A stretch of 64,000 bases of DNA from positions 1-64,000 of IMG/VR virus record IMGVR_UViG_2724679538_000004; one strand, written 5' to 3'. Below the pieces are notes generated by a model, which ran no database searches, was not told where the DNA came from, and was given only the letters and a program-made list of their open reading frames with translations. The translations under genes and the position numbers were made by a program. Below, piece by piece: positions 7,196-63,113 of this stretch. The DNA comes from a virus (Duplodnaviria > Heunggongvirae > Uroviricota > Caudoviricetes). How positions within the stretch are numbered: the first letter of the stretch is position 1; every line of letters begins with the position of its first letter.

Positions 7196-7216
7196 AGAAA
7201 ACAAATTGTTTCAAAC
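7196..7216. promoter_or_regulatory. motif B palindromic operator/promoter element
   Basis: AGAAAACAAATTGTTTCAAAC upstream of parA. Confidence 0.5.
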
Positions 7217-7244
7217 GACAAATATATACGTAAGGGACTCTCCA

Positions 7245-7913
7245 ATGACGAAGATCATTGTGGTTGGTGGAACAAAAGGCGGCCCCGGTAAATCTACCGT
7301 TGCCCAGCAAATCGCAGTTTGTCTCAAGATCAAAAAGAAAAAGAAAGTTCAAATCACCGATATTGATATTCAACGCACCACAACAAGCTGGTGCGAAGAC
7401 CGGCGTCAGAATGAAGAACTTGAGCTAATTCCATTCGCCTATGTGCCGGACGATATCGTTAAACACATCAAATCGCTTAAAGGGCGCTACGATTATGTTG
7501 TTATTGATGCTGGGGGCTTTGACTCCGAAATCCAACGACACGCAATGCTGTTGGCCGATTTCGTCGTTATCCCACTACGTCCTAAGCGTCGGGATTTGAA
7601 GTCGTTGCGTGATATTGATCCGATAGTTGATAACGTTCGCATCATTAACGACAAAGTGAAGGTCCGCGCGGTCATGAACCAATGCCCGGCTCTGCCATCA
7701 CAAGTGTCCCGCATTCTGGCAGCCAAAGAGATCGTTGAGACGTTTGGCATCGAATCTGCGCCAGTCAACCTGTACAACCGCAACGTCTATGACGACGCAG
7801 AAGAATCAGGTCGCTCTATCTTTGAAATGACAGGTAGTGAGCGTGACAAGAAGGCGGAAGCTGAGTTTGAAGAGTTTGTAGATTATCTATTGAGTCTGGA
7901 GGAAGAAGAATAA
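7245..7913 (+). CDS. parA: ParA-type partition ATPase
   Basis: Deviant Walker A KGGPGKST near N-terminus (MTKIIVVGGTKGGPGKST); RBS AAGGGA; followed by small overlapping partner gene. Confidence 0.8.
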   Translation: MTKIIVVGGTKGGPGKSTVAQQIAVCLKIKKKKKVQITDIDIQRTTTSWCEDRRQNEELELIPFAYVPDDIVKHIKSLKGRYDYVVIDAGGFDSEIQRHAMLLADFVVIPLRPKRRDLKSLRDIDPIVDNVRIINDKVKVRAVMNQCPALPSQVSRILAAKEIVETFGIESAPVNLYNRNVYDDAEESGRSIFEMTGSERDKKAEAEFEEFVDYLLSLEEEE

Positions 7914-8272
7914 TGTCCATGAAAATGGGAGACCTTGCAAAGCGCACTGAGCCTACTACACAGGTCAAAAACAACACGCCGTTGCGCCAGCCAGTCAGAC
8001 CACAGGGCCGCCCAACTCGTGGTAAAGAAAAAATCAAAAGCCGTACTATGTCGCTGGAAGACGAGTACTTTGAACTTCTGGAGATGATGAAATGTATCCC
8101 TCGTTTTGAGAAGTTCACACGTTCTGACGTTATTCGTGCAGCCATTTTCCATCTTGCTGAAAAATCGCCGCAAGAAATCGAAGATATCGTGAAACTGAAC
8201 GATGCAATTACAGCTGCCGACGTCACTATGCGTACTGATGAAATCAAACGTGAGCTGATGAAGAAAGGTTAA
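7913..8272 (+). CDS. putative partition centromere-binding protein (ParG/ParB-like)
   Basis: 119 aa, start overlaps parA stop (TAATG); basic N-terminus, position typical of partner of small ParA. Confidence 0.45.
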   Translation: MSMKMGDLAKRTEPTTQVKNNTPLRQPVRPQGRPTRGKEKIKSRTMSLEDEYFELLEMMKCIPRFEKFTRSDVIRAAIFHLAEKSPQEIEDIVKLNDAITAADVTMRTDEIKRELMKKG

Positions 8273-8324
8273 AAATGATGCATTGGCGTTAACGTTAACA
8301 GTGCGCCAATGCATCATAACAGTG

Positions 8325-9143
8325 TCAGACTAATGCCGCGCTAATACTGCGTTCAGTCTTGCCCACTCCCACCTTCACAAAAGGGCTACCGTAGCTTGGT
8401 GGTTTCTTGATTAATTTTCCTACGTATAGTTCTCTAATATGTTCATCGGCTATTCTGCCAACAAATTCATAACGTTTGGTATCAGGGCTAAGAGCTATAT
8501 CTCGTGTAAAGTACTGCTGAGAACCGGCTTTGACCCAGCATTCTATCTGATAAACCTCCATTATTAGCCCACCATATGTAGCGTAGGCATATTTGAGATT
8601 CTCATCTCTGGGAACCTTTGCCCATACGCCACGCGTAGCTTCATATAATGCCAGAGCGGACATTCCTGACTTGTAGGTGCTGTTTAGCAGAAAGGCTAAT
8701 CCGGCGTGCTCAGGAGCAATTTCAGTTTCCTCTTGTAGAACTAAGTGATGGTAGGCATCCAGTGATATTCTTCCCATCAGGGAACCACTTCCTCGTACTT
8801 TATTAGTTAGTTCTCCAACCCCCATAAGATCAATGCATGTTGCCTCAACAAGTTTGGCTGTGCTTTCATCCATGCCATGACGAAGAATATCTATGCCTAA
8901 TTTCTTTTGCGCCAAAAGTTCTTTGATTCGTCTTGATTTAGGAGAATCATCGAGGTACTTGATGTGGTCAAGACAACGAGTCGATTTGCCTTTTCCTATG
9001 TAAAACGGTCTTTTCATCTTGTCTTCTGTATCATAGAGACAGTAAACATAGTATTTAGCCTTATCCAACGATTTCGCGTACACCGATAAATCGTACATTG
9101 TTTCGTCCCTTAGCAACTGAATAATGCGTTCTATTTTACACAT
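8325..9143 (-). CDS. GIY-YIG domain nuclease
   Basis: YYVYCLYD..(7)..PFYIGKGKSTR matches GIY-YIG core with conserved Arg and downstream Glu; C-terminal 160 aa unassigned. Confidence 0.55.
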   Translation of the reverse strand: MCKIERIIQLLRDETMYDLSVYAKSLDKAKYYVYCLYDTEDKMKRPFYIGKGKSTRCLDHIKYLDDSPKSRRIKELLAQKKLGIDILRHGMDESTAKLVEATCIDLMGVGELTNKVRGSGSLMGRISLDAYHHLVLQEETEIAPEHAGLAFLLNSTYKSGMSALALYEATRGVWAKVPRDENLKYAYATYGGLIMEVYQIECWVKAGSQQYFTRDIALSPDTKRYEFVGRIADEHIRELYVGKLIKKPPSYGSPFVKVGVGKTERSISAALV

Positions 9144-9332
9144 AAGTATTTAATTAACTGTAAAATTTCTGGGTGTCTAAGACGACAACTTAAACCTGCT
9201 TCTGTATATATATTTAATAAGTTACTTATTATTTATATACAGAAGCAGGCTCTTTAAAGTACACGTCAGAACAACTCCCTTCTGTTTCTACTTCCAAAAA
9301 CAAGCACCAGTCGCTATGATTCGCTCAAAATG

Positions 9333-9352
9333 ATAAGTAAGTAGTTACCTAT
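9333..9352. repeat. motif A copy
   Basis: ATAAGTAAGTAGTTACCTAT abutting ATG 9351. Confidence 0.7.
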
Positions 9353-10106
9353 GAGCGCGAATCATATGAGTCAAATTTTTTTTAACACTATAGATAACGA
9401 CCAGTACGACTTCATGACTGAATGGGACACCTGCGTTATGGACAAGTGGGTAGCTGACAACATCGGTCTGTCACGTTGTAAAGACGAGGCAGAATTGTTT
9501 GAGACGAAGTGGTTTGATTACCGCGACATGCATCCGCTCATGGCTACATGTTTGTTCACAGAGGCATACAAGCGCCAGTACGCCAATATCATGCTGACAC
9601 ATGGTCGTGAGCATTTTGAAACAGCGCCATATTGCACTGGACTAAAGCGTTTGCCCTACCAGGAGTTGTCCGCTGCAAACAAAACTTCTTTATGGAAAGC
9701 ACGCCAGTTTGCGGATCAGTACTGCTGCACATATGACTACTTCATTTCAACCGTTCTCTCTGCTGCCGCAACGCGTCTGTGGGACAAGTTGCCTCGACCA
9801 CAGCATCTATGGCAGCCAGAGCTAATTGAAATTTTCGAGAATAAGTTAGCTAAGCGATCGTTAACCCGTCTGGAAGACTCTCTGGTGAGCTTTAAGCACA
9901 TGGGCGACACGCAATATAACCCGATTCAGGAACGTTATTTTGAGTGGGTTCTGGAGCGTTTACGTGGTGTTGCCCGTGATAAGCGGATTCGAACAATCTT
10001 TTCAGCTATCTGGCTTATGGAAATAGTGCCAGAGCGCCTTATTTACGCCCACTTCCCAGAAGAACTGGAAGAAGCGCGGCGATTCGTTGATCCCCTGTCT
10101 CATTAA
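9351..10106 (+). CDS. hypothetical protein (possible replication accessory/helicase loader by position)
   Basis: 251-aa ORF immediately upstream of helicase gene; no motif recognised. Confidence 0.4.
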   Translation: MSANHMSQIFFNTIDNDQYDFMTEWDTCVMDKWVADNIGLSRCKDEAELFETKWFDYRDMHPLMATCLFTEAYKRQYANIMLTHGREHFETAPYCTGLKRLPYQELSAANKTSLWKARQFADQYCCTYDYFISTVLSAAATRLWDKLPRPQHLWQPELIEIFENKLAKRSLTRLEDSLVSFKHMGDTQYNPIQERYFEWVLERLRGVARDKRIRTIFSAIWLMEIVPERLIYAHFPEELEEARRFVDPLSH

Positions 10107-10114
10107 TAAATACT

Positions 10115-10134
10115 AGAAAACAATTTGTTTAAAA
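10115..10134. promoter_or_regulatory. motif B element
   Basis: AGAAAACAATTTGTTTAAAA 16 bp upstream of helicase RBS. Confidence 0.5.
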
Positions 10135-10149
10135 GACAAAGGAAAGCAC

Positions 10150-11490
10150 ATGACCGAACTTTGCCATACAGGACGCGGTTTGTCAGAGGAGTTTGACGAT
10201 GACTTCCAGAACAGACTTGCGGCTTATTATTGTCGCGATCATGAGTTCTTGACTCGTGCAGGAGACCTTGTAGCGCCTAATCAATTTGAAAATGCAGCCA
10301 ATGCCATACTGGTAAATATGGTTTCTGGCTATTACCGGATGTACAAAAGCGCACCGTCGTCTTCTGCAATTCTGGATATGCTTAAGCGTGCGAAACGCGA
10401 TAAGACCATCCGCGAAGAACTCTTCGCCGACGTTGTTGCGGCGTTTAAGCGCATCCTTGCAGAGAAGCTGTCTGATACCTCGTACATGGTTGACCAGGTA
10501 TCGACTTTTGCAAAAAGCGTGGCGTTTGATGAAGCTCTGATTAAGGCTGCTGAGCTGAAAGAAAAGGGTGACTTTCAGGGGGCTATGGCAATCATGGCTA
10601 AAGTTCAGCAGATCGGATCGAACGAAGCGACCGGAATCTATGATTATTACACCTCAGCAAGTGAGCGGTTGAAAGCACGTGAATATGAGGCTTCAGCGGA
10701 GTATGTGCCAAACAGCATTACTACTGGACTGCCGCTGCTTGACAGGTTGCTGTACCAAAAAGGCTGGGCAAAGCGAGAAATGGTCCTCTTCATGGGATTC
10801 GCTAAGTCCGGTAAATCGACCGCAATGGGTGAGTTTTCCATTAACGCAACGCTCGCAGGCCACAATGTTCTGTATCTTTCGCTGGAGGTTCACACCACCA
10901 TTTTAGCCGACCGTTTCGATGCGAGGTTGTCGGAAACTGAAATGTCCAAGCTGGTGGAACGGCGCGATGATGTTCATCGTAAGTTGGCAGAGTTGGGAGC
11001 CACAAAGGGGATTGGCAGCTTATGGGTTGTTGAACGCCCATCAGGAAGTATGTCACCGGCAGATTTGGACCGTATGCTTAACAGCATGAAAGCCAATGGC
11101 ATGGTGCCTGACATGGTTGTCGTCGACTACGCAGATCTGATGCGTGCCAGCTATGACCTGCGTGATGATCGCGCCAACATACGTAGTATCTATACCGATT
11201 TACGTGCGCTCTATGACAAGCATAACGTTGCTGGCATCACTGCGTCACAGACAAACCGTGAGGGTGGGGCGTCAGAAGTGGCTACTATGATGCACGCTGC
11301 TGATAACATTGAAAAAGTTCGTATTGCCGACCTTGTTATCACCATCAACAAAACAGAAGAGGAAGAAGCGAAAGGCGAAGCTCGTCTCTACTTTGCTGGT
11401 TCGCGTAACCAGCAAGGTGGCATCAGTATTCGCGTTAAGCAAAACCTTGAACAAATGCGCTTTATCGAGCGCATTATGGACGTCACCTAA
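10150..11490 (+). CDS. DnaB-like replicative DNA helicase
   Basis: Walker A GFAKSGKST, RecA-like C-terminal domain with arginine-finger region; RBS AAAGGAAAGCAC. Confidence 0.8.
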   Translation: MTELCHTGRGLSEEFDDDFQNRLAAYYCRDHEFLTRAGDLVAPNQFENAANAILVNMVSGYYRMYKSAPSSSAILDMLKRAKRDKTIREELFADVVAAFKRILAEKLSDTSYMVDQVSTFAKSVAFDEALIKAAELKEKGDFQGAMAIMAKVQQIGSNEATGIYDYYTSASERLKAREYEASAEYVPNSITTGLPLLDRLLYQKGWAKREMVLFMGFAKSGKSTAMGEFSINATLAGHNVLYLSLEVHTTILADRFDARLSETEMSKLVERRDDVHRKLAELGATKGIGSLWVVERPSGSMSPADLDRMLNSMKANGMVPDMVVVDYADLMRASYDLRDDRANIRSIYTDLRALYDKHNVAGITASQTNREGGASEVATMMHAADNIEKVRIADLVITINKTEEEEAKGEARLYFAGSRNQQGGISIRVKQNLEQMRFIERIMDVT

Positions 11491-11495
11491 AAAAA

Positions 11496-11572: not shown

Positions 11573-12754
11573 ATGAGCCTCTATGTTATATCAACACCGA
11601 GGCTGGTCACAATATTGCCTGTTAAAAGTGAAATTGTCGTGAGTGAGCTGAGAGAACTTATTTCAGAACTGGATTTCGAACAGTGGTTAGATACTGAGGG
11701 CATTATCTATCGGCGTGGCGGTGTAAGTGCCAAAGGGCGTGAGGTAAATATTAAAGAGTGCCCTGTATGTGGAAGTACTAACTGGAAGGTTTATTTCAAT
11801 CTTAACAATGGGGTAGGTAAATGTTTTGCTGGCGACCATCCAGAAGAAATTCAGTTTAACAAGCTGGTATTCCTTAAGCACTACAGCGGTAAATCACGCA
11901 GAGACTTTGAGGAATATGTCCAGAACGCGCTGCTTTCGCAGGGATGGGCACCGAAGAAAGAAGAGATTGTACTTGTCAGCGAAGTCGAGTTAGAAGGACC
12001 AGTCGCTCTCCCTCGTCATTACGAACTTCCCATAGATGGTCGTTTGCCTGACTATTTGGTCGAACGCCACATTACACCAGAGATGGCACGGTACTTCGAT
12101 CTCCGATACTGCGTGGAAGGCAAACACGCTTATGTTGATCCCTATACAGATCAAGTGAAAGGTCAGGTATTTGATATGAGAATCCTGATACCTGTATACG
12201 ATCTAGATGGCGTGATGAAAACGTTTCAGGGGCGAGATATCACTGGAGAAGCTGAACGACGTTATCTATTCCCAATGCAATTACCAGCTTCCGGCAAATT
12301 CCTTTACAACGGCCACAATGCAGTAGGCAAACAGACTGTCGTTGTATGCGAAGGCGCATTCGACGTTATGGGCGTCAAACGTGCCATCTTTTCCGAAGAG
12401 ACTTTGCGCGAGTACGTAGAGCCAATTGGAACGTTCGGGATGCATTTATCTGGGACCACTACGCAAGATGCAGAAGACCAGCTTGGGGCATTCCTGACTT
12501 TAAAGGCGAGCGGATTACGTAATGTGATCATGATGTGGGACAGCGAAAAGCAAGCGATACGTAACACGATGTCTGCGGCAAGGCGGCTAACAAGCATTGG
12601 TCTGAATGTGAAAGTCGCCTGTCTTGGAGAAGAAGGACTCGACCCCGGCGATGCAACGCCGGAGCAGATCATCAAAGCCTACTATCGCGCCAAACCGTAT
12701 ACCAAACAGTTAGAACTGTTAAGCAAGATCAAAGGCATAGCGGCATTAGTTTGA
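11573..12754 (+). CDS. DNA primase (zinc ribbon + TOPRIM)
   Basis: CPVCGSTNW..CFAGDH zinc-binding motif; TOPRIM-like VVVCEGAFD and MMWDSEKQ; start chosen at ATG 11573 with conserved AAAAGAAAAACAC leader. Confidence 0.75.
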   Translation: MSLYVISTPRLVTILPVKSEIVVSELRELISELDFEQWLDTEGIIYRRGGVSAKGREVNIKECPVCGSTNWKVYFNLNNGVGKCFAGDHPEEIQFNKLVFLKHYSGKSRRDFEEYVQNALLSQGWAPKKEEIVLVSEVELEGPVALPRHYELPIDGRLPDYLVERHITPEMARYFDLRYCVEGKHAYVDPYTDQVKGQVFDMRILIPVYDLDGVMKTFQGRDITGEAERRYLFPMQLPASGKFLYNGHNAVGKQTVVVCEGAFDVMGVKRAIFSEETLREYVEPIGTFGMHLSGTTTQDAEDQLGAFLTLKASGLRNVIMMWDSEKQAIRNTMSAARRLTSIGLNVKVACLGEEGLDPGDATPEQIIKAYYRAKPYTKQLELLSKIKGIAALV

Positions 12755-13891
12755 AGTGGTGTCGGTCACGTACACATTGACCGAAAATGATTTAACCTCT
12801 GTTTTGAAATTATCCGTCATTACAGCAAGATAGGCATTCTTGGTATCTCTGAACTGTTTCAGGATGATTTGTACATTATCCGTGCAAACAAAAGAGGTGG
12901 CAAGATTGCCCCCTTTCTCTGAAAAATCTTTCAAAAATGTACAGTCGGCTTTGCCGCCATTGGCGGTAAAGGTGGCATCGTCTCCCTGCCAGATAAATGT
13001 TGCGTTAACGCCTTTATCAATAGATTTTGCAATGAGCCGCTGGGTGGCGGATTTTGCTTTAGGGTTTGCAGCTGGTGGTTGATATTTACCGCTTTCTTTC
13101 AGTTCCGCAATGTAATCACAGCCTTTTTTATCTTCTTTATCGCAAGCAGCCTGATAAAGCTCTGCTGCTTTTTTATAGTCCTTTTTAACACCCTCCCCAT
13201 TCTCATACATTATGCCAAGATTTGTCATGGCATCGGCGTTTCCGAGTTCAGCAGCTTTTTTATACCACTTAATTGCTTCGGCATCGTTGCGTTTAACACC
13301 TAAACCGTCATCGTATAAGGTGCCTAATGCGAACATGCCATCTGAACTACCTTGATCCGCCGCTTTTTTGTAATAAGTAAAAGCTTTTTTATAACTCTTT
13401 TGTACACCTTTACCATATTGGTAATACACACCAAGAAGGTAGCTAGCTTTAACATACCCGGCATCAGAGGCTAATTTGAAGTATTTAATGGCGAGCGCAT
13501 GATCTACTTTACCAAGCATCCCCTTTTGATAAATAGCACCAAGATTGTTGTAGGCTCTACCTTCACGAGCATCTCCCGCAAGTTTGTAGTACTCAACAGC
13601 TTTATTTAAGTCTTTATCTACACCCTCGCCAAATGTGTACATAACCCCAAGTGCATAATATGCTACTTTGTCTCCCTTTTCTGCAGCGAGATCAATCCAC
13701 TTCTTGGCCTCAACTACATCCTTATCAAAACCATTGATACCATCAAAATAATTTGTACCTAACTCACTTTGAGCTGCGGCATTTCCCGCGGTAGCGGCTT
13801 CTATCAGTGTTTGCTTATTGTCTGCGTTAGCGAATCCAGCACCAAAAAGTAAAGTTAATGCCAGCAACGATGATGGTTTTATGAATTTCAT
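12746..13891 (-). CDS. secreted Sel1-like repeat (SLR/TPR-like) protein
   Basis: Signal peptide MKFIKPSSLLALTLLFGAGFANA; at least five repeats of the type A.YYLG.MY..G.GV.KD...A..WYKKAA; opposite strand to neighbours. Confidence 0.75.
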   Translation of the reverse strand: MKFIKPSSLLALTLLFGAGFANADNKQTLIEAATAGNAAAQSELGTNYFDGINGFDKDVVEAKKWIDLAAEKGDKVAYYALGVMYTFGEGVDKDLNKAVEYYKLAGDAREGRAYNNLGAIYQKGMLGKVDHALAIKYFKLASDAGYVKASYLLGVYYQYGKGVQKSYKKAFTYYKKAADQGSSDGMFALGTLYDDGLGVKRNDAEAIKWYKKAAELGNADAMTNLGIMYENGEGVKKDYKKAAELYQAACDKEDKKGCDYIAELKESGKYQPPAANPKAKSATQRLIAKSIDKGVNATFIWQGDDATFTANGGKADCTFLKDFSEKGGNLATSFVCTDNVQIILKQFRDTKNAYLAVMTDNFKTEVKSFSVNVYVTDTTSN

Positions 13892-14123
13892 ATTTTTTGT
13901 TCTGTTGATATAGGATGAACAGTTTAGACGCGGCAAGCGTCAAGTTTGCGAAAAGAGTACTTAAATTTAGTTATTCTGTCAGCTTTGTTAATATAGTTTA
14001 TGGTTGGTAAAGTTAATAGATAACTAATAACTATAAGAAATAATGAGTTGTTCAATTATTGTGATACAACTCGTGTTTTGGTTAACTAATACCTACGATA
14101 AATATAAATTAAGGAAAGTCAAA

Positions 14124-17335: not shown

Positions 17336-17511
17336 TGCTCGGCTGGATGATTGTATTTTTGGTTGTCGGTATTGTTATCGGCAGTCTGGTGACGTCCAGC
17401 TGCATTAACGACTACGTAAATTCGGATGTTATGGAGAGACGCGGCCGCATTTATCGCATTGTGGATATCACTCACACGGTGAAGGAGATTAAGGATGATC
17501 GTACTAAGTAA
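17332..17511 (+). CDS. small membrane protein (59 aa)
   Basis: ATG overlaps ligase stop; hydrophobic N-terminus MMLGWMIVFLVVGIVIGSLV; below the ORF-track size cutoff. Confidence 0.4.
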   Translation: MMLGWMIVFLVVGIVIGSLVTSSCINDYVNSDVMERRGRIYRIVDITHTVKEIKDDRTK

Positions 17512-17707
17512 ACGGGAGAAGGAAACGCTTCATGAAATCAGTAAGTGGCCGGAGTTCCCTGAATTCTGGAAACCTAAAACACGAGCCAGATTAGAGCGGT
17601 TGGGATTGGTTGCAAACGTGTCTGAAACATGTTGTTCAGCCAACTACCAGTTAACCCACAAAGGGAGAGGATTGCTACAGCAGCTGATAGAAACAGGAGC
17701 GTTATAA
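17495..17707 (+). CDS. hypothetical small protein
   Basis: 70 aa, overlaps neighbours at both ends (coupled). Confidence 0.4.
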   Translation: MIVLSKREKETLHEISKWPEFPEFWKPKTRARLERLGLVANVSETCCSANYQLTHKGRGLLQQLIETGAL

Positions 17708-18922: not shown

Positions 18923-18997
18923 GATGGTGTAGCTCAGCGGTAGAGCAGTTGGCTGTTAACCAACTGGTCGGTGGTTCGAATCCACCCACCATCGCCA
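18923..18997 (+). tRNA. tRNA-Asn (anticodon GTT)
   Basis: Hand-folded cloverleaf: acceptor GATGGTG/CACCATC, D-stem GCTC/GAGC, anticodon loop CTGTTAA, T-arm GGTGG-TTCGAAT-CCACC, encoded CCA. Confidence 0.85.
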
Positions 18998-19002
18998 ATT
19001 TA

Positions 19003-19089
19003 GGGGAGTTAGTCCGTAGAGGTAGCGGTGTAGACTGTAAATCTACTGTCATTGCGACTCGGGTGGTTCGACTCCATCACTCCCCACCA
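19003..19089 (+). tRNA. tRNA-Tyr (anticodon GTA), long variable arm
   Basis: Acceptor GGGGAGT/ACTCCCC, anticodon arm GTAGA-CTGTAAA-TCTAC, T-loop GGTTCGACTCC, encoded CCA. Confidence 0.75.
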
Positions 19090-19093
19090 AATT

Positions 19094-19169
19094 GCCGGTT
19101 TAGCTCAGTTGGTAGAGCAGTCGCTTTGTAAGCGAATGGCCAGCGGTTCAAGTCCGTTAACCGGCACCA
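19094..19169 (+). tRNA. tRNA-Thr (anticodon TGT)
   Basis: Acceptor GCCGGTT/AACCGGC, D-arm TAGCTCAGTTGGTAGAGC, anticodon loop TTTGTAA, T-loop TTCAAGT, encoded CCA. Confidence 0.75.
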
Positions 19170-32418: not shown

Positions 32419-32689
32419 AGAATTATGGCGCTTGTTGAGGAAGTCACTCCTCTTACGCACTTTGTTTTGCCATGCCGGCAGTTAGCTTCTGCCTTTGACT
32501 ATTCATGCGGCAACCCCGCATTTCGCCACAATGGGCAATTCACTTTAATGGAATAAACTGGCCGTTGTGTCGATTTAATTAGCATGGCCTTACCATGCTA
32601 ATTTATTCAACTTGTACAATCCTACAAATCTATCCACTCAGGCTTACACCGTCTTCGTTATTGTAGAAATGAGGATCATCAGCGTTGAA

Positions 32690-32905
32690 TCAGCTTAGAG
32701 CAACGACATTTGCTGCTGCTGGGCCTTTAGCCCCATTCTCGATAGAGAATTCGACCTGCTGGCCTTCTTCCAAAGTGCGGAAATTATTACTCTGAATTGC
32801 CGAAAAATGTACAAAAACATCTTTACTGCCATCAGCAGGAGAAATAAAGCCAAAGCCTTTATCAGAGTTAAACCATTTTACTAAACCAGTCATTTTATTA
32901 GACAT
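32690..32905 (-). CDS. cspA: cold-shock protein (CspA family)
   Basis: [38 protein letters not shown] near-identical in pattern to E. coli CspA; long untranslated leader upstream. Confidence 0.85.
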
Positions 32906-33234
32906 AGATATTACCTTCTTAATTTTGTGAGCCACATAGTGCGGCGAGAATTTGATCTGTATAGATTGGGACTTACTTAGGCACTTAAGGAGGAGACTCA
33001 CGAAGAAGGGAAATCAGAAGATAACACTGAACTGAGACTGCTTTACTAAAACTGCTTACATAAGGTCTGTCTTGCAAACCAACGATGCTATTAACGCATA
33101 CCCTTTCTTTTCATGCAACCTTTATTTTTCAAAGATAACTAATTTTTGTCACCGTTGGTTTAGTAAACGTTAACGAACCAGACGATGACAGACACCTTTA
33201 CAGAGAACAGATGCCCGCCAATTGGCGGGCATCA

Positions 33235-39383: not shown

Positions 39384-39409
39384 GGCGTCCAGTTGGACGC
39401 CGTTTTTTT
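39384..39409 (+). terminator. rho-independent terminator (GGCGTC family)
   Basis: GGCGTCC-agtt-GGACGCC GTTTTTTT. Confidence 0.75.
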
Positions 39410-39428
39410 GTTGTTATTATCACCATCA

Positions 39429-39448
39429 AGAAAACAATTTGTTTAAAA
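39429..39448. promoter_or_regulatory. motif B element
   Basis: AGAAAACAATTTGTTTAAAA. Confidence 0.5.
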
Positions 39449-39461
39449 GGAGAAGTAAACC

Positions 39462-39887
39462 GTGACAGCAATTAAGAAACTCTACGATGCCGCAAACGCA
39501 GCTCTGGATGTTATTGATGATGAAGTATCAAAAGGCTTTCCTGAACCTGATTGGGCGCATCAGCTACGAAACGCTATAGCTGAAATGAGTCCTCCAGAGC
39601 CAACGCCTGACGAGGCTGACTGGCAGCGATTCATCCGTATGTACGCTGAGGAAATCGGACCAACGCCAACGGCGGAACAAGCAATGCTACTGAAATACTT
39701 TAAAGAGGCTGGGGAAGATTTGCCAATCGACGAATCGGCACACTGGTTTCACTGCGCATGGCGCAAGTACGACGTGATCTACACCCGTGGAATGGGCAGT
39801 AAAGATATGGTTGTGTGGCATCTTCTACATATAGATAGAGCCGTTGATAACGTAATCGAAAAGTTCTTCCCTAATGAAGAAGATTGA
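39462..39887 (+). CDS. hypothetical protein
   Basis: 141 aa, GTG start after GGAGAAG. Confidence 0.4.
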   Translation: MTAIKKLYDAANAALDVIDDEVSKGFPEPDWAHQLRNAIAEMSPPEPTPDEADWQRFIRMYAEEIGPTPTAEQAMLLKYFKEAGEDLPIDESAHWFHCAWRKYDVIYTRGMGSKDMVVWHLLHIDRAVDNVIEKFFPNEED

Positions 39888-40432: not shown

Positions 40433-40768
40433 GTGAAGGCGATAACTTTCTCACTAGTGTTTCTATCATCTTTGGTAATGGCGGATACCTCTGTTTATGA
40501 GTGCGATATGTCAGTTGCCAGTATCAACAAAGGCGCGATCACCAACATCACAAAGGCGCCATATGGCGCAATGGTAGTGGACAGCGGTGACCAGTTTTAC
40601 GTCCTTCGTGATGATCGTGTTTTGTCATCTCCTCATCTTTCGGATCGGAATGGCAAACTGACCGGAGTAGGAGAAGACCACTTCACATACAACAAATACC
40701 AGGGCTTTTATGGCATTCACGCTTCTACAAAAAGCTACCTTTTCGATGACTGCAAGGAGATTGGATAA
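40433..40768 (+). CDS. hypothetical secreted protein
   Basis: N-terminal signal peptide MKAITFSLVFLSSLVMA. Confidence 0.45.
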   Translation: MKAITFSLVFLSSLVMADTSVYECDMSVASINKGAITNITKAPYGAMVVDSGDQFYVLRDDRVLSSPHLSDRNGKLTGVGEDHFTYNKYQGFYGIHASTKSYLFDDCKEIG

Positions 40769-40980
40769 TGGCGGTGACACTGGCAGGTCTGGAAATCGAG
40801 AAAACAAGCGGATACTGGCGTTCCAAAGGATTCAAAAAAGCCAGCATACAAGATCGGCTAGAGCGTGAAGATGGATACATCATCCACCAGCGCAAGGAGT
40901 GGAGAATGGTTGATCCTGAGACTGGTAAGCTCGCAACGAAGGCTCAGACACTCTGGGGTTTATTGAAGAAAATTCACTGA
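40768..40980 (+). CDS. hypothetical protein
   Basis: 70 aa, ATG overlaps upstream stop. Confidence 0.35.
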   Translation: MAVTLAGLEIEKTSGYWRSKGFKKASIQDRLEREDGYIIHQRKEWRMVDPETGKLATKAQTLWGLLKKIH

Positions 40981-41469: not shown

Positions 41470-42525
41470 CTATTTGCGAGTCTTTGCCTTGCGCAACTCT
41501 TCGAGAAGCGCCAGTTCTTCTTTACTCAACATGACCATTTTGCCTTCTTTTTCGTCAGGCGCAACGTCGATAATGTCATCTTGATTCTCATCTGGGAGGC
41601 TATATTCCGTCTCATCATTATCGATTTTTGTTGATATTTGTGCCTGGCGTAACTTTGGCCGCCTATAGTGGATGACGAAGTAGACCGAGTTTCCGCGCTT
41701 AACTTCCGTGTAATCGAGATATCCTATCTCTCGCAGCTGTTCCATAGCCTTTCTTACCGTCGCATTCTGAGTAATAGTGCGACTTGTCAGATTAAGTCTG
41801 GCGCGTAAACGGGCTAGTGATATTGGTGCCGGATCAGGCGGCAAACTTTCAATAAAAGTATAAAGCGCCTGAGCGGATTCTTTTCTTGAGAGTTCGTTTA
41901 TAGCCCGGAGTTGCAGAAGAACCTTTTTGTCGAACTGGTAGAGTTCGAAAATCTTGGGATCTGCTTTCAGTTCGACCGTATCGTGCTTGACACTATATTT
42001 TGCCGTTTGCACAAGATGCGTTACGTAAAACTCATCAGAGCCTTTGCTACGGAACGAGATGGTATTTGTGGCAATACGGCTTAGCGAACTGTCCAGGCGT
42101 TTGCGTAACTTCGCTGATGACCTGGCGGTCGGAATGCCACACAGCCTTACAAACTCAACGAACGGCAACGTGACGGTATCGCCAACGACCTTGTGTTTGG
42201 CAAACGCGTGGATTATTCCCACCCACGTTTTAAAGTCGTTATCCATATCAAGCCGAAGGCCAGAGATCCTTATGTCTTCGTACCCTTCTGCTTTTGCCAG
42301 AGACAGCTGTTTGAGTTCAGCAGAGGCATCCATAGAGACCATTTGCCCCTTTCTTCCTCTGGATGTCGATTTCAGCGTCGGAACGAAGAGGCCCAGACGC
42401 ATCAAAGCAACAGGCTGAACAGTGTTATTAGTGTTAGGAACCAACGTAACAACTTCGCCTGTCTTTTTATCTGTTTCTGAAAATGCTTCAACGATCGCTA
42501 TGTTTTTATTGCCGTTTTCGCTCAT
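41470..42525 (-). CDS. repA: iteron-binding plasmid replication initiator (RepA/Rep_3-like)
   Basis: 351 aa, flanked on both sides by arrays of its presumptive binding repeats; C-terminal winged-helix-like region. Confidence 0.7.
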
Positions 42526-42569: not shown

Positions 42570-42691
42570 ATTACAGTGGATAGTAGCACTCATCACAGCG
42601 GTTATCCTACCGTCTATAGTGGTTTTTCTCCTCTCTATAGTGGTTGCTTTGCTCCCTATAGTGGATTATTTGCTCTCTATAGTGGATATCG
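42570..42691. repeat. iteron array upstream of repA (about 6 copies, 21-22 bp phasing)
   Basis: CTCTATAGTGG(A/T)T repeated at helical spacing. Confidence 0.8.
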
Positions 42692-42967: not shown

Positions 42968-43072
42968 CTCTCTACAGTGGATATATACAGCTCTCCAGAG
43001 TGGTTGTTTTACTCTTCATAGCGGTTATTCTGCTCTCTACAGAGGTTACTTTGCTCTCCATAGTGGATGGCA
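42968..43072. repeat. iteron array (5 copies, 22-bp phasing)
   Basis: CTCTACAGTGGAT, CTCCAGAGTGGTT, CTTCATAGCGGTT, CTCTACAGAGGTT, CTCCATAGTGGAT. Confidence 0.8.
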
Positions 43073-51081: not shown

Positions 51082-51140
51082 CATATGGTGGGGGATATCC
51101 CCACCTTCTCTTTGATTTGTAAGCCTTGTTTAAACACATA

Positions 51141-51160
51141 AGATAACAACTTGTTTAAAC
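51141..51160. promoter_or_regulatory. motif B element (plus half-copy at 51124-51137)
   Basis: AGATAACAACTTGTTTAAAC. Confidence 0.5.
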
Positions 51161-51186: not shown

Positions 51187-52329
51187 ATGTCATATTCAAC
51201 GTTCCGTTTGGGTGCTAATGATGCAACCAAAGAGCCTATGTTCCTCGGACAATCTGTCAACGTGGCACGTTACGATCAGCAAAAGTACCGTGATTTTGAA
51301 AAGTTGATTGAACGTCAATTGTCTTTCTTCTGGCGGCCAGAAGAAGTTGATATTTCAAGCGATCGCATCGACTTCAATACGAAGCTGCGGGACCACGAAC
51401 GTCACATTTTCCTGAGTAATCTCCGTTATCAAACGTTACTCGATTCAGTTCAGGGACGTAGCCCAAATGCAACGCTGCTGCCGCTTATCTCTATCCCTGA
51501 ACTGGAAACGTGGATTGAAACGTGGTCTTTCTCTGAGACTATCCATAGCCGCAGCTACACCCACATTATTCGTGGCATGGTGGATGACCCTAGCATTGTT
51601 TTTGACGGTATTGTTACGGATGAAGAAATCATCAACCGAGCGATCAGTATCTCTGCTGAATATGACAGGCTTTATGGGATGACCTGCGATCGCCAGTCGT
51701 TAGGTGAGAAGGAATTTGAGCGTCTGTACGTAAATGAATATGGCTGGGAGCCATACCCTTTGCAACGTCAGCTTTTCCGCACGTTGGTGTCTATTAATGC
51801 GCTTGAGGCGATCCGTTTCTACGTAAGTTTTGCATGTACGTTTGCCTTTGGCGAACGGAAGTTGCTTGAGGGTAACACCAAAATTATGCGCTTTATTGCC
51901 CGTGATGAAGCTCTGCATTGCGAGGGAACAGAACGTATGATCCGCTTCATGCGTACAGGTCGCGAAGGTTTATTGTGGAAAGAGATTGCTGCTGATGAAG
52001 AAAATGTCATTTACGACACCATGAAATCAGTCGCCGAACAAGAAATGAACTGGGCAGACTATCTCTTCAAAGATGGCTCAATGATTGGTTTAAACGCAGA
52101 GATTCTCAAAAGCTACGTAAAGTACCGCACCAATCTGGCTATGAATCGTCTTGGCCTTAAGGCGTTATTCCCAGAAGTTACCAGTGATCCGCTGGTCTGG
52201 ATGAATAAGTGGCTATTGACCGACACACTGCAAATCGCACCACAAGAGGCAGAGCAAAGCACATATCTGGTAGGTCAGATCGATTCTACCGTAGACAAAG
52301 CCTCACTGAGTCAGTTCGCGGACCTGTAA
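51187..52329 (+). CDS. nrdB: ribonucleotide reductase small subunit (NrdB)
   Basis: Di-iron/tyrosyl radical protein pattern ([24 protein letters not shown]); follows nrdA. Confidence 0.85.
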
Positions 52330-59214: not shown

Positions 59215-59445
59215 ATGGTCTATCAAACAAACGTTGTAGCGCTCGTTGAGAGCGATTTTCTAGCCCAGGCGCGTGAAATGCTTAAAGATCGCGAGCGGGC
59301 GTTTAATTTGTATGAATGGGCACTCAAATGCCTACATCTTGGCGAGCATAAAGAACTTGTTGAACAGCTGTTAGGTGAGTTGATTAATGAGGTGTTTGCC
59401 TTAAACGTCCAGCTACATGGGCGAGAAAGTAACCAACCCCAATAA
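59215..59445 (+). CDS. hypothetical protein
   Basis: 76 aa; AAGGAAACACACATG initiation region. Confidence 0.4.
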   Translation: MVYQTNVVALVESDFLAQAREMLKDRERAFNLYEWALKCLHLGEHKELVEQLLGELINEVFALNVQLHGRESNQPQ

Positions 59446-59464
59446 TAGATAAGTACCTACTATT
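59444..59464. repeat. motif A copy
   Basis: AATAGATAAGTACCTACTATT. Confidence 0.65.
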
Positions 59465-60044: not shown

Positions 60045-60641
60045 ATGACGACGAAGACACCAGCCCGATCGCAAGCAAAAACTCTCAAAAAAGCCAAAAA
60101 CAAAAATTCTCCCCGCACCAATCACACAACGCCTGTCGTAGAGTTCAATCCCCAGCTTAAAACCGTGAAAATCTTTAGTGATGGCTCTTGCCTTAAAAAT
60201 CCGGGTGGTCCTGGCGGTTACGGTATCGTTCTCCAGTATCGTGGTGAGGAACGCGAGTTCTCAGATGGTTTTCATAGCACCACTAATAACCGCATGGAGA
60301 TGATGGGCGCACTCATCGGGCTGGAGCGTTTGAAATATCCATGCAACGTTATTTTGTACTCTGATAGCCAGTATCTGAAAAACGGCATGACACAGTGGAT
60401 GAAATGGTGGAAACGAAATGGATGGATGACTTCTGATAAAAAACCGGTAAAGAATGTTGATCTGTGGAAGCGTCTGGATGAGGCCGCAAGTCGACATAAT
60501 GTTCGCTGGAAGTGGGTTAAAGGCCATGCGGGACATCGTGAAAACGAGATCTGTGATCGTCTTGCTAAGATTGCAGCATTCACTGCCGCTGATACTCCAT
60601 TTAAAAAAGATTTAGGTTTTTTGAATCAAAATAGTAAGTAA
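60045..60641 (+). CDS. rnhA: ribonuclease H (RNase HI)
   Basis: [41 protein letters not shown] motifs; N-terminal basic extension; start set at ATG 60045 after CAGGAG. Confidence 0.85.
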
Positions 60642-60655
60642 GTATTTACCTATTA
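60630..60655. repeat. motif A copy
   Basis: AATAGTAAGTAAGTATTTACCTATTA overlapping RNase H stop. Confidence 0.65.
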
Positions 60656-60783
60656 TTTAGATTAAGGTATTCTGATCACCGTCAGGATGACAATGTGTCG
60701 GTGAGACACAGTTCCAGGATGGAACGGGAAAGGCGGCTGGTTAATGCCAGCCGCAACTCTTTCTGACACTGGATGGAGTCCTA

Positions 60784-61281
60784 ATGGCACGTCAAACCTA
60801 TTTCACTTCTGCAACTAAAAGCAAACGCCCACGCTCTTTACGTCAAATTTTGGCCGAGCTATTTAGCGGTCGCGCTTTGTCACGCCTTGATGAACTGGAG
60901 TCTACCGTTCAGTTGCTGACGAAACGTTTAGATGATCAAGCATCAGTCGTTGCGAATATGGGGGCGATTGTTACCTCTCGTTCTTCACGCGAGGCGAAAA
61001 AAGTACGTCCTTTAGTGAAGGAGAAAAATAACAAGGACAGTTCGAATGGAAAATTTTCAAAGAAAGAGGCTGAAACCAATGGCCTACGCTCTCATTTTGC
61101 TTTCACTGGCGACGGTAGCCGTCCCAGCAGGCCAGAGCCTTTTGATGCAGGATTCTTCCACCACACGTCAGCCGACGACAATTTCCACCGCTCCAGTGGA
61201 GCGTCCTGTCTCTCTGGATGGGATGTCGGTGGATGCGATACCTCAAGTTCATCCAGTTACTCTGGATCATGCTGCGATTAA
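60784..61281 (+). CDS. hypothetical protein (3' portion doubtful; overlaps next ORF in another frame)
   Basis: Good RBS GGAG and protein-like basic N-terminal 90 aa; C-terminal 70 aa low-complexity. Confidence 0.3.
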   Translation: MARQTYFTSATKSKRPRSLRQILAELFSGRALSRLDELESTVQLLTKRLDDQASVVANMGAIVTSRSSREAKKVRPLVKEKNNKDSSNGKFSKKEAETNGLRSHFAFTGDGSRPSRPEPFDAGFFHHTSADDNFHRSSGASCLSGWDVGGCDTSSSSSYSGSCCD

Positions 61282-61294
61282 GGCTGTTGCATGA
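61079..61294 (+). CDS. small secreted protein
   Basis: Signal peptide MAYALILLSLATVAVPA; RBS AGAGG. Confidence 0.4.
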   Translation: MAYALILLSLATVAVPAGQSLLMQDSSTTRQPTTISTAPVERPVSLDGMSVDAIPQVHPVTLDHAAIKAVA

Positions 61295-61479
61295 ACTGGC
61301 TTTCAAATCACTTTGGAAAAATTTGGCTGGTTATTGTGGCTCTCATGGCCGCAGGTTGGGTGTCAAACATTGTAAAACTCGTTTGCTCTGGGGATCTCCA
61401 GTTTCAGGCTGGAATGACTCTGGCTCGTGTAGTTGGGATTTTTATGTTTCCAGTCGGTTCGGTGCTTGGCTATTTCTAA
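61291..61479 (+). CDS. small membrane protein
   Basis: 62 aa, ATGA overlap; two hydrophobic helices. Confidence 0.4.
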   Translation: MNWLSNHFGKIWLVIVALMAAGWVSNIVKLVCSGDLQFQAGMTLARVVGIFMFPVGSVLGYF

Positions 61480-61538
61480 TGCGTGTCGGAGTTGAGGCTT
61501 TAGAAGCCATAGTTCATGTAATTCTGTTTACTTCACTT

Positions 61539-61558
61539 AGAAAACAACTTGTTTTGAC
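61539..61558. promoter_or_regulatory. motif B element
   Basis: AGAAAACAACTTGTTTTGAC. Confidence 0.5.
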
Positions 61559-61580
61559 AAATAACATATAGGAAAAACAC

Positions 61581-62006
61581 ATGTTAGGTTTCTTTAAAAA
61601 GAAAACTCGTAAAGCTGTTATCGAAGTCAAAAAAATGGAGAACCGTGATGCGGTTGAAGCCACTGTGTGGGGCGCGTATATGATCTCCTATTCCGATGGC
61701 ACATGCGATGCAAAAGAAATTTCCATTCTTGAGAAAACAATTGCAGCTCTGCCTGCGTTTTCTCCGTTTGCTGCTGAGATAGCCCAGATGAGTGCCAATA
61801 TCCGCGCTCAATACGAAGCCTCACCACGCCGAGCTAATGCTCAAGCTTTACGTGAACTGGCTGATGTGGCCGGGACTAATGATGCAGTAGATGTTCTGTG
61901 TCTGTGTATTGATATTGCCGATCAGGACGGTATTGGCGAGGAGGAAGAGTTGGTGTTGAAAAAAATCGCTCAGGCGCTCCAGCTTTCACTGGATGCTTAT
62001 CTCTAA
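61581..62006 (+). CDS. TerB-like domain protein
   Basis: Two ADG/DQDG...E motifs (YSDGTCDAKEISILEK, ADQDGIGEEEELVLKK) typical of TerB-like fold. Confidence 0.4.
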   Translation: MLGFFKKKTRKAVIEVKKMENRDAVEATVWGAYMISYSDGTCDAKEISILEKTIAALPAFSPFAAEIAQMSANIRAQYEASPRRANAQALRELADVAGTNDAVDVLCLCIDIADQDGIGEEEELVLKKIAQALQLSLDAYL

Positions 62007-62164
62007 TGCTTGAGAGATTCCGGCTTGTGATCGTCATTGCTCTTTTGGTGATGGCGGTGCTGGTGGATTTTACGGGAAAGATCATGTCTGTCATTTCTGA
62101 TGGCGTTCTTGTTGGTCTGGCGATCTACTTCGCTCGCCCTCTAATCCGTAATGCAAAGTGTTAA
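62006..62164 (+). CDS. small membrane protein (52 aa)
   Basis: ATG overlaps upstream stop; hydrophobic LVIVIALLVMAVLV; below ORF-track cutoff. Confidence 0.35.
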   Translation: MLERFRLVIVIALLVMAVLVDFTGKIMSVISDGVLVGLAIYFARPLIRNAKC

Positions 62165-62179
62165 TAACAAGGGCCGACT

Positions 62180-63022
62180 ATGGCCCTTTTGTTTCATGGA
62201 GCGCGTATGTTTGAGATTTCAACACTCACTTCTACTACCAAAGGTTTTCACGATAAGCCTTCAATGACCAGTCAGGAGATTGCCGAGTTGGTTGGCAGTC
62301 GTCACGACAGCGTTAAACGCACCATAGAACGGCTGGTAAAAACTGGCGTCATTACTTTTCCACCAATGGTGGAAAAGCCCACCGCAGGTCGCCCTTCGAC
62401 GATGTACCTGTTTGAAGGCGATCAGGGCAAACGAGACAGCATTGTCGTAGTTGCGCAGCTGTCGCCGGAATTTACGGCACGTTTAGTTGATCGCTGGAGA
62501 GAGTTGGAGTCCATATATGGCGCAGCTGTGACTCCAGCGATACCTCGTACCTACAAAGAAGCTCTTGTTCATTTGCTTCATCAGGTTGAAGAAAACGAGC
62601 GCCTTGAAAAGAAAAATGAGGCTTTGGAAGTAGCGCTGTCAAATGCAAAGCCAAAAGCCATTCTGATGGATACGATTTGCGGAACCGCAAATGAACTTTA
62701 CGGGCTTAATGAAGCTGGGCGCATTCTCGGTACATCTGGTGTTGTTATGGGGGAATTTCTGGATTCTCTTGGCGACGTTTATGTAAAGCGCAAATACACA
62801 ACTATCAATCGTCAGTTCTTGAAGGCTTTCATTGACCGTGGCTATGGGAAAAATGTCGTGATCGGAACTGGACGTAACCAGGCAAAATTCACCTTTAAGG
62901 GGCTTTGCTTTGCGGCTGTGAAGCTGATTGCCGCAGGAAAAATAACCGTCAACTCCATCGAATATGAACCGTGCCGGGAACATGTTGAGCGTGAATTGAA
63001 GGGCGCAAAAAGTCTTCATTGA
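62180..63022 (+). CDS. Rha-family phage regulatory protein / antirepressor
   Basis: MTSQEIAELVGSRHDSVKRTIERL matches Rha N-terminal motif; true start may be internal. Confidence 0.55.
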   Translation: MALLFHGARMFEISTLTSTTKGFHDKPSMTSQEIAELVGSRHDSVKRTIERLVKTGVITFPPMVEKPTAGRPSTMYLFEGDQGKRDSIVVVAQLSPEFTARLVDRWRELESIYGAAVTPAIPRTYKEALVHLLHQVEENERLEKKNEALEVALSNAKPKAILMDTICGTANELYGLNEAGRILGTSGVVMGEFLDSLGDVYVKRKYTTINRQFLKAFIDRGYGKNVVIGTGRNQAKFTFKGLCFAAVKLIAAGKITVNSIEYEPCREHVERELKGAKSLH

Positions 63023-63093
63023 TTTTCAACGTGGACACTCACCTTTTCATTGCGATTGTTCCCCTCTCCTAATCAGACACAATAAAGCCAATA

Positions 63094-63113
63094 AGAAAAC
63101 AACTTGTTTAATC
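63094..63113. promoter_or_regulatory. motif B element
   Basis: AGAAAACAACTTGTTTAATC. Confidence 0.5.

Follow-up and report, generated by a model that had tools for sequence, protein, structure and literature searches.

The stretch of DNA analysed here (hereafter the window: 64,000 nucleotides, positions 1 to 64,000 of the IMG/VR virus record IMGVR_UViG_2724679538_000004) belongs to an SSU5-like phage-plasmid, and our subject is a 19-base near-palindrome within it, AGAAAACAA-N-TTGTTTAAA, which we call motif B and which stands upstream of seven of its genes. In the helicase-primase stretch used for comparison, the window shows about 85% identity with E. coli phage-plasmids such as phage Cyrano (pLF82) and about 80% with Salmonella phage SSU5. 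Related enterobacterial plasmids number several hundred, and the gene order of the window matches that of Cyrano from the tail fibre through CYRAN_87.

Seven genes preceded by motif B

All seven genes and all seven copies of motif B lie on the + strand. The first copy (7196..7214, AGAAAACAAATTGTTTCAA), the most deviant one, precedes parA (7245..7913, ATG start), which encodes a small Walker-type partition ATPase of 222 amino acids, type Ib-like and without an N-terminal DNA-binding domain; its product matches Pfam AAA_31, MipZ, CbiA and VirC1 and the PHROG of ParA-like partition proteins. Position 17 of this copy is C or T instead of A in every lineage examined. Perfect consensus copies are found before three genes: a DnaB-like helicase gene (10150..11490, Pfam DnaB_C; motif at 10115..10133, with a core invariant in seven lineages), a cobT-like gene (25304..27358, Pfam CobT and CobT_C, syntenic with Cyrano; motif at 25269..25287) and a gene for a DUF7238 protein (39462..39887, GTG start, Pfam DUF7238; motif at 39429..39447). 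The cobT-like gene is followed by genes for a CobS-like AAA ATPase and the DNA polymerase III alpha subunit, and its motif B is degenerate in Cyrano (4 mismatches) and well kept in plasmid pMT1 of Yersinia pestis; the DUF7238 gene heads an operon whose final gene is a P1 Cra-like gene (40768-40980). The remaining copies precede nrdB (51187..52329, Pfam Ribonuc_red_sm; motif at 51141..51159, AGATAACAACTTGTTTAAA, in a context identical in Cyrano), the gene of a TerB-domain protein resembling P1 TciA (61581..62006, Pfam TerB; motif at 61539..61557, AGAAAACAACTTGTTTTGA) and the open reading frame (ORF) 63129 (63129..63698, 189 amino acids, a homologue of CYRAN_87; motif at 63094..63112, AGAAAACAACTTGTTTAAT, kept in Cyrano at 81275). 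At nrdB, an additional right half-site, TTGTTTAAAC, can be read at 51126..51135 (+ strand), 6 nt upstream of motif B.

The first-pass annotation had described a palindromic AAACAA-N-TTGTTT element upstream of these seven start codons, and the element is present as written at each of the seven positions. The true palindrome is confined to the central 13 bp (6-1-6), in which C7 and G13 of the 19-mer form the sole G:C pair of each arm, and the flanks are conserved yet asymmetric, with AGA toward the promoter and AAA or AAG toward the gene. A search of the window with AGAAAACAAYTTGTTTAAA, allowing up to 3 mismatches and taking dinucleotide-preserving shuffles as the null, returned 7 matches against 0.15 expected, and the core AAACAANTTGTTT occurs exactly 6 times against 0.03 expected. 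No shuffle equalled either count, so that the frequency of the motif is not that of random positions, and at 4 mismatches no additional site appeared in the window. The end of motif B lies 14-30 nt before the start codon at all seven genes, and a good Shine-Dalgarno sequence is present in each case. In front of many genes the ribosome-binding context is nearly identical, AAGGAAAAACACATG (window 34877, 44156, 51175, 61569, 63117 and others).

Conservation across the family

Cyrano carries motif B at the orthologous places, namely parA, the helicase, cobT (the degenerate copy), CYRAN_58, nrdB, tciA and CYRAN_87, and about ten more copies beyond the region matching the window, among them two in tandem upstream of the small terminase gene, terS, and a series before small genes at 93-98 kb, which brings its genome to about 18. 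Between four diverged lineages, ATAAGAAAACA..TTGTTT is essentially all that the upstream regions of parA have in common. Similarly, the invariant blocks in a seven-lineage alignment of helicase promoters are TTGA of the -35 element, AAACAA-N-TTGTTTA and the ribosome-binding region. The alignment of upstream regions thus showed motif B retained at orthologous promoters while its flanks diverge.

A scan of IMG/VR for exact matches gave at least 118 loci, whose relatedness to SSU5 was assigned by blastn; among the matches listed, 108 of the 118 are SSU5-like. The remaining 10 of those listed are probably chance matches, since they are single and sit in unrelated contigs of low GC content (28-41%) with essentially no homology to Cyrano. 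Additionally, we scanned 5,426 complete E. coli genomes with a 30-nt query containing motif B in its T-centred variant, for which detection needs a match of roughly 18 nt or more. There were 886 matches in 247 genomes, every one on a plasmid, and none on a chromosome for this variant and match length. Its retention amid diverged flanks and its confinement to the family therefore indicate that motif B is under selection and specific to these elements.

Promoter context and paired copies

Window promoters were scored with a simple sigma-70 position weight matrix (PWM) against random positions. At sites 7196, 10115, 25269 and 39429, a promoter ending 0-12 nt upstream of motif B scores above the 95th percentile, and the score at site 63094 is near the 90th. 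Particularly, the helicase gene has a -35 element TTGATC (10087..10092, + strand; PWM 8.0, above the 95th percentile of background), whose TTGA is invariant in seven lineages, and, after a 16-nt spacer, a -10 element AATACT (10109..10114, + strand) that abuts motif B, so that transcription should start within the left arm of the motif. In helicase promoters of seven lineages, the -35 element is TTGATC, TTGAGC or TTGATG, and a -10 element reading AATACT, CATAAT, TAAACT or AATAAT follows 16-17 bp later and ends 0-9 nt before motif B. A candidate cobT promoter, TTAATC-17-TAATTT with a TG extension (25231..25259, + strand; PWM 7.8, above the 95th percentile), lies 9 nt upstream of the motif, and a candidate DUF7238 promoter, TTGGAC-16-TATTAT with a TG extension (39393..39420, + strand; PWM 10.0, above the 99th percentile), has a -10 element that ends 8 nt before the motif and a -35 element that overlaps a terminator-like hairpin at 39384-39401.

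In relatives, motif B stands 0-10 nt downstream of a sigma-70 -10 box. Across 211 unique contexts (70 clusters), a TG-extended, AT-rich -10 signal recurs at a nearly fixed upstream offset of about 10 nt, the typical arrangement being TGnGATAAT or TGnTATTAT, then 10-11 nt, then AGAAAAC. As judged from these alignments, motif B would cover roughly -2 to +23 of its promoters and overlap the predicted transcription start.

Many promoters of relatives have a second, inverted copy of motif B over the -35 element (TTAAACAAnTTGTTTTCT), an arrangement restricted to them, whereas the copies in the window are single and downstream of the promoter. The two copies are exactly 51 bp apart in ten unique cases and 25 bp apart at terS (4 cases), and the AGA flank faces the -10 element in both. 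At about five turns of the helix, the fixed 51-bp spacing points to looping or to cooperative binding. At two Cyrano sites, 97187 and 85815, only the upstream copy over the -35 element is found; there motif B is therefore outside the transcript, which argues for action on DNA.

The leader of Cyrano terS (L001:40-135) has the two copies 25 bp apart followed by a GC hairpin and T-run (AGAGCGCATGGACGCGCTCTGTGTGTTTT), and the late operon may thus need antitermination besides derepression. A similar leader, GAGCG...GTGTGTTTTT, follows a copy of motif B at Cyrano 94602 (minus strand).

Expression of the target genes in a lysogen

Per-gene RNA-seq of Cyrano residing as a plasmid-prophage in LF82 (PMC9928086, S1 Table) gives normalised reads with a median background of 9.8. 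On this scale, the genes behind motif B are near background: terS 7.1, the helicase 21.1, the cobT-like gene 7.8, CYRAN_58 5.7, nrdB 12.9, tciA 7.0, CYRAN_87 7.1, CYRAN_101 7.5, CYRAN_105 12.8, CYRAN_106 12.2, CYRAN_108 5.7, CYRAN_110 6.7 and CYRAN_111 25.5. The sole exception is the parA operon (50, 89 and 55). Promoters that are silent despite good extended -10 boxes fit repression.

A second palindrome and the immunity repressor

A second dispersed element, motif A, is the 20-bp palindrome ATAGGTAAGTACTTACCTAT, with 18 matches in the window at up to 3 mismatches against 1.55 expected; its 14-bp cores lie at window positions 306, 4597, 9336, 21509, 24760, 27379, 34787, 38282, 44039, 48704, 53432, 58409 and 60637. 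It is mostly placed in the spacer between -35-like and -10-like hexamers of sigma-70-like promoters, such as those of the tail fibre, holin, cobS, gp32-like ssb, sbcD, nrdA, thyX and dam genes, and motif A and motif B promoters alternate along the gene array (nrdA has A and nrdB has B; cobT has B and cobS has A). A helix-turn-helix repressor gene (24344-24736, minus strand; weak HTH_31 and HTH_3 matches, PHROG transcriptional regulator) has a perfect copy of the core, GGTAAGTACTTACC, 24 bp upstream, and we read motif A as probably the operator of this immunity repressor. The core resembles the SlmA-binding sequence of E. coli, GTGAGTACTCAC.

In the distant lineage L136, motif A is replaced by AAGTATGTAAGTGTATACATAGG and motif B is unchanged at parA and the helicase. 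Since motif A varies between lineages and motif B is constant, motif B is not the immunity operator, and its binder must be a conserved factor. The immunity repressor was rejected as the binder of motif B, its gene being preceded by the other palindrome, which has a dispersed family of its own.

In the same region, a perfect hairpin with a 12-bp stem, CTGTACGAACAG-N9-CTGTTCGTACAG, without a T-run, lies at window 25204-25250, between the cobT promoter and a small gene adjacent to the repressor gene (24991-25203), and is conserved in Cyrano and pMT1.

Candidate regulators

A protein that keeps these genes silent in the lysogen has to be produced in that state. Besides the antitoxins of toxin-antitoxin pairs, the Cyrano genes above background with the look of DNA-binding proteins are CYRAN_45 (the immunity repressor), CYRAN_29 and CYRAN_117. 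CYRAN_29, annotated as 'RelE/ParE' in the Cyrano record and expressed at 89 against the background of 9.8, is 93% identical to the product of ORF 7913-8272 of the window (+ strand, 119 amino acids), which directly follows parA, overlaps its stop codon and belongs to the operon headed by the motif B promoter.

This protein, here called ParG-like, carries a conserved MGDLAK at its N-terminus, followed by a disordered basic stretch, the putative strand IKSRTMSLEDEY, a helix and FTRSDVIRAAI; neither IKSRTMSLEDEY nor FTRSDVIRAAI varies across lineages of 49-93% identity, and both hardly change in members further away. The order from parA to the ParG-like gene is conserved in all lineages examined, and the residues of the putative strand and helix 2 are invariant wherever motif B is canonical, lineage L136, which keeps both the protein and the canonical motif, included. 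In type Ib partition systems (ParG, omega, pCXC100 ParB), the adaptor gene comes right after a small parA and its product autoregulates the par promoter. The combination found here, a small ParA without N-terminal DNA-binding domain and a small adaptor gene, is that of type Ib. It is thus plausible to read ORF 7913-8272 as encoding a ParG/omega-like ribbon-helix-helix (RHH) centromere-binding protein, a fold suggested by its sequence layout. Motif B, the only conserved element in the parA promoter of four diverged lineages, would be a candidate site for such an adaptor.

The ParG-like family is small. A first search gave 25 clusters and a hidden Markov model search of 1.8 billion proteins 18, a search of GTDB genomes for distant relatives found six close loci only, and about 800 PLSDB plasmids carry the gene. 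Nothing could be learned from a truncated copy carried by a 188-kb Klebsiella plasmid.

Regarding other candidates, CYRAN_117, RHH-like and expressed in the lysogen, appears a poorer candidate than CYRAN_29, for Cyrano and pMT1 have motif B in common and yet differ in the putative strand of this protein. CYRAN_43, the most highly expressed gene of the lysogen, was rejected, not being in the window although motif B is present there. CYRAN_114, annotated as a 'transcriptional repressor', belongs to an FljA/Hfq-like RNA-binding family and is more likely an accessory gene acting on the host, and the 'LexA-like' CYRAN_98 is a UmuD-like protein behind a LexA box and without a DNA-binding domain.

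Two observations concern these last genes in their own right. A canonical LexA box, TACTGTATGTGTATACAGTA, lies at Cyrano L002:39270-39310, just upstream of CYRAN_98, which is well expressed in the lysogen. Homologues of FljA, the post-transcriptional repressor of phase-1 flagellin, are encoded at Cyrano L003:780-1301 and pMT1 L134:6013-6540 (Pfam Flag1_repress, E = 1e-80), possibly as an accessory gene altering host motility.

Other features of the window

After the par operon, at window 8325-9143 (minus strand), an ORF encodes a GIY-YIG (LEM-3-like) nuclease, in a place taken in Cyrano by the unrelated CYRAN_30. Further on, at 9195-9262, a long inverted repeat, CTGCTTCTGTATATAT...ATATACAGAAGCAG around AATAAGTTACTTATT, could be a bidirectional terminator or a protein site, and similar structures are found in Cyrano after CYRAN_30 and just before the terS promoter.

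Three repeats spaced by 216 bp (13167-13632) lie inside the minus-strand ORF 12746-13936, which is annotated as a Sel1/tetratricopeptide repeat protein in related plasmids. Four tRNA genes (Asn, Tyr, Thr, Ser) occupy 18923-19902, the Cyrano annotation having three at the syntenic place. They are followed at 20000-22900 by a low-GC island (33.6% GC at 20-22 kb) with a 450-amino-acid minus-strand ORF (weak AbiC-like match), a glutaredoxin gene and a YafO-family toxin gene (22494-22919); this island is variable cargo in place of the very highly expressed CYRAN_43 of Cyrano.

A full-length Rfam match to the cspA thermoregulator 5' untranslated region (185.7 bits) at 32665-33083 (minus strand) suggests an accessory cold-shock protein gene. 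Finally, two arrays of 21-bp direct repeats, with a consensus of about CTATAGTGGTT...CTC (42593-42685 and 42995-43066), stand upstream of the repA-like ORF 41470-42525 (minus strand) and resemble the iterons of a plasmid origin.

Discussion

The findings presented here make it likely that motif B is the DNA operator of an element-encoded repressor conserved throughout the family, whoever the binder is. The first-pass annotation had suggested the operator of a dimeric regulator, shared by plasmid-maintenance and phage genes, and this suggestion is supported by the conservation of the motif, its position on promoters, its pairing in relatives, the silence of its targets and the scope of the regulon. 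It had also described the regulon as one of maintenance and early genes. The span from maintenance to phage functions holds; the label 'early', however, is too narrow, since the terS promoter of relatives bears motif B as well.

We envisage the binder as a conserved, sequence-specific and probably dimeric protein encoded by the element itself and distinct from the fast-evolving immunity repressor. Bound at motif B, it would cover the transcription start and the early transcribed region and so block initiation or promoter escape, and the inverted copy over the -35 element, 51 bp away in relatives, would allow cooperative binding or looping. In the plasmid-prophage state, the helicase, cobT-dnaE, DUF7238, nrdB and tciA genes would be held nearly silent, as would the terminase operon and a group of small accessory genes in relatives. 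With the weakest copy of the operator, the parA operon would keep a moderate, autoregulated expression; indeed, that its copy is the most deviant one would be expected if the operon encoded its own repressor, a weak operator then setting the steady-state level.

Some observations weigh against motif B as a repressor operator. The asymmetric conserved flanks (AGA versus AAA) are not explained by a simple symmetric dimer. Upstream of the nrdB and tciA sites (51141 and 61539), the PWM finds only weak sigma-70 matches. Moreover, a strict consensus promoter scanner found no + strand promoter at the parA and helicase sites, from which it follows that the window's own promoters are moderate matches.

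As for the identity of the regulator, the ParG-like protein encoded at 7913-8272 is the leading candidate, tentative as it is. It may act like omega of pSM19035, joining partition adaptor and global repressor in one protein. That a protein binds motif B, that it represses and which protein this is are what we infer; what the data show is the significance of the motif, its conservation within the family, its place relative to conserved promoter elements, its paired layout in relatives and the silence of the targets in a lysogen of a relative. A number of results count against this candidate. The protein has no match in Pfam, in PDB sequences or in Foldseek, its search against PHROGs gave no classification, and hhalign found no similarity to the ParG and omega sequences used for comparison. 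The AlphaFold model of the monomer is of low confidence (pLDDT 63) and has no fold match. Upstream of parA there is one two-arm palindrome only, short of the at least 4 contiguous repeats of an omega-type centromere.

The distribution of the protein and that of the motif also come apart in places. The distant, syntenic Moellerella plasmid pW18-2-b keeps the ParG-like protein with a near-identical strand, IKSRTVSMEDEY, and has no canonical motif B, only the degenerate AGAAAACAATATATTTT upstream of parA, which speaks against the candidate. This plasmid also lacks most of the motif B target genes, and a search in it for a specific replacement motif found nothing systematic. In lineage L135, the protein is kept and the parA motif B is degenerate, one copy with symmetric C-to-T and G-to-A changes. 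Conversely, pMT1 of Y. pestis has lost parA and the ParG-like protein (it has P7-type ParAB instead) and has kept six copies of motif B; because pMT1 is a recent derivative, these copies may be relics.

Within the same reading of motif B as a repressor operator, a different protein of the element is about as likely a regulator as the ParG-like one. It could be the Cra-like protein (window 40768-40980), a small protein of winged-helix-like appearance (window 17495-17707; CYRAN_123), CYRAN_117 or an unrecognised small protein. The Cra-like gene, being the last in a motif B operon, could be autoregulated, and pMT1 has motif B together with the Cra-like protein, CYRAN_117 and CYRAN_123 and is without the ParG-like protein. 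In line with this, the Moellerella plasmid lacks homologues of CYRAN_37, CYRAN_62 (Cra-like), CYRAN_46 and CYRAN_114 yet has the ParG-like protein. This phylogenetic profile is, however, based on four or five genomes only, and CYRAN_37 (6.4), CYRAN_123 (7.8) and the Cra-like gene (13.4) are at or near background in the Cyrano lysogen. The putative DNA-reading strand of CYRAN_117 differs, as mentioned above, between two elements that share motif B, and none of these candidates has a recognised DNA-binding domain above threshold.

A more far-reaching proposal is that the approximately 18 dispersed motif B sites per genome serve at once as a distributed centromere and as operators for an orphan RHH partition adaptor encoded after parA. 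We regard this dual role as rather doubtful in its full form; its implications are considered below.

Motif B might instead act in the transcript, as an AU-rich translational enhancer in the 5' leader, as the site of an RNA-binding repressor of the FljA kind or as an RNase processing site. The seven window copies are in fact always transcribed and always in the sense orientation, 14-30 nt before the start codon and just before the Shine-Dalgarno sequence, and the motif matches, at 14 of 18 specified positions, the leader of phage T7 gene 10, AGAAAUAAUUUUGUUUAAC, a classic strong translation leader. Besides, the FljA homologue is present in Cyrano and pMT1 and absent from the Moellerella plasmid, which has no canonical motif B; it is more simply seen as an accessory (moron) gene acting on host flagellin. 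In relatives, the copies are neither always transcribed nor always sense, since inverted ones lie upstream of the -10 element at a fixed 51 bp and some promoters have only that untranscribed copy. Strict dyad symmetry, furthermore, has no obvious use in single-stranded RNA. A hairpin in the leaders was rejected, as they fold no better than shuffled sequences (z -0.3 to +1.5). On balance, we consider an RNA element unlikely.

It seems more improbable still that motif B is the site of a host transcription factor of Enterobacteriaceae exploited by the element. Such a factor would account for the constancy of the motif across lineages with differing immunity operators, and canonical motif B is absent from the single relative examined that has a host of the Morganellaceae. 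Nevertheless, the T-centred variant is missing from the chromosomes of the E. coli genomes scanned, nearly all viral matches, among those listed, are SSU5-like, and we know of no enterobacterial factor with such a consensus.

Least probable of all is a positive role for motif B, as a promoter element or as the recognition sequence through which an element-encoded activator or sigma-like factor would turn these genes on in lytic growth. The lack of an activator would equally explain why the targets are silent in the lysogen, good sigma-70 promoters are wanting at the nrdB and tciA sites, and the upstream copies are centred near -38, a typical class II position. Most copies, however, have their centre near +10 to +14, downstream of good extended -10 promoters for which activation should be unnecessary, and the parA operon has motif B and is nonetheless expressed in the lysogen.

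Returning to motif B as a repressor operator, its organisation can be compared with several plasmid-wide regulatory systems. One close precedent for the proposed role of the ParG-like protein is omega of the inc18 plasmid pSM19035, an RHH ParB that is at once a partition adaptor and a global repressor, acting on copy-number, partition and toxin-antitoxin promoters (PMC9499535, PMC2441792, PMC4627068). Its sites are arrays of 7-10 contiguous heptads (WATCACW), which may be inverted, and centromere activity needs at least 4 of them (PMC9499535). As with omega, a small protein is encoded together with a small ParA and the operators overlap promoters; the half-site centres of motif B are, in addition, 7 bp apart, which is the spacing of the omega heptads (PMC9499535). 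On the other hand, motif B is a single palindrome of two half-sites, sometimes paired at 51 bp, and not a heptad array. The two proteins have no sequence similarity, the setting here is a phage-plasmid of Gram-negative bacteria, and genes of phage replication and packaging are among the targets.

A different precedent is KorB of the IncP plasmid RK2, a helix-turn-helix partition protein of the ParB family and a global repressor that covers replication, maintenance and transfer genes from about a dozen dispersed OB operators, often from a distance. The OB operator is, like motif B, a 13-bp 6-1-6 palindrome found at many promoters across functional modules; its sequence, TTTAGCSGCTAAA, is unlike that of motif B, which sits on the promoter itself. 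The genes of the ParB-family proteins CYRAN_119 and CYRAN_120 are at or below background in the Cyrano lysogen (5.0 and 9.5) and have no counterpart in the window; because they are silent in the lysogen, a KorB-type regulator is not found.

Among phage-plasmids, C1 of P1 is an immunity repressor with many dispersed asymmetric 17-mer operators, each serving a separate operon. The scatter of operators round the genome is similar here, and the role of C1 fits motif A, not motif B. In the linear phage-plasmid N15, the type Ia ParB protein SopB binds the dispersed centromere sites IR1-IR4, four 16-bp sites, according to a passage of PMC7205306 that cites Ravin and Lane (1999). In N15, too, the palindromes are single and spread over the genome instead of forming one array, but motif B is more numerous (7 in the window, about 18 per Cyrano genome), and each of its copies is tied to a promoter. 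Passages of PMC2777438 and PMC3074162 describe ArtA of the Staphylococcus aureus plasmid pSK41 as an RHH global regulator of plasmid genes, and pCXC100 ParB as a type Ib centromere-binding protein without detectable sequence similarity to DNA-binding motifs, its RHH fold being known from structure only. Both serve here as precedents, the latter for the orphan sequence of ORF 7913-8272, although sequences, hosts and operators are unrelated.

By analogy, then, the motif B system would seem most like the plasmid global regulons, while being a demonstrable member of none of the omega, KorB or N15 SopB systems. Our full-text literature searches returned no description of a motif B operator or of the regulation of SSU5-like phage-plasmids. 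We propose that motif B marks a second, deeply conserved regulon that stands beside the immunity circuit in these elements, of a familiar kind, its motif and its regulon being apparently undescribed.

SSU5-like phage-plasmids are common in Enterobacteriaceae, and phage-plasmids are reported, in passages of PMC9600943 and PMC12217456, to carry resistance genes. The motif B regulon links partition, replication, deoxynucleotide supply, packaging and accessory genes. In this regard, a 19-bp site, two informative bases and few candidate binders offer handles on the switch between plasmid maintenance and lytic growth and on promoter annotation across the family. The finding would be of greater interest if the partition adaptor proved to be the regulator. 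The segregation machinery would then directly silence the genes of phage replication, nucleotide metabolism, packaging and establishment, the weakest operator, that of the parA operon, would set the level of the repressor, and replicating genomes, titrating this repressor once induction or infection has occurred, would time the derepression.

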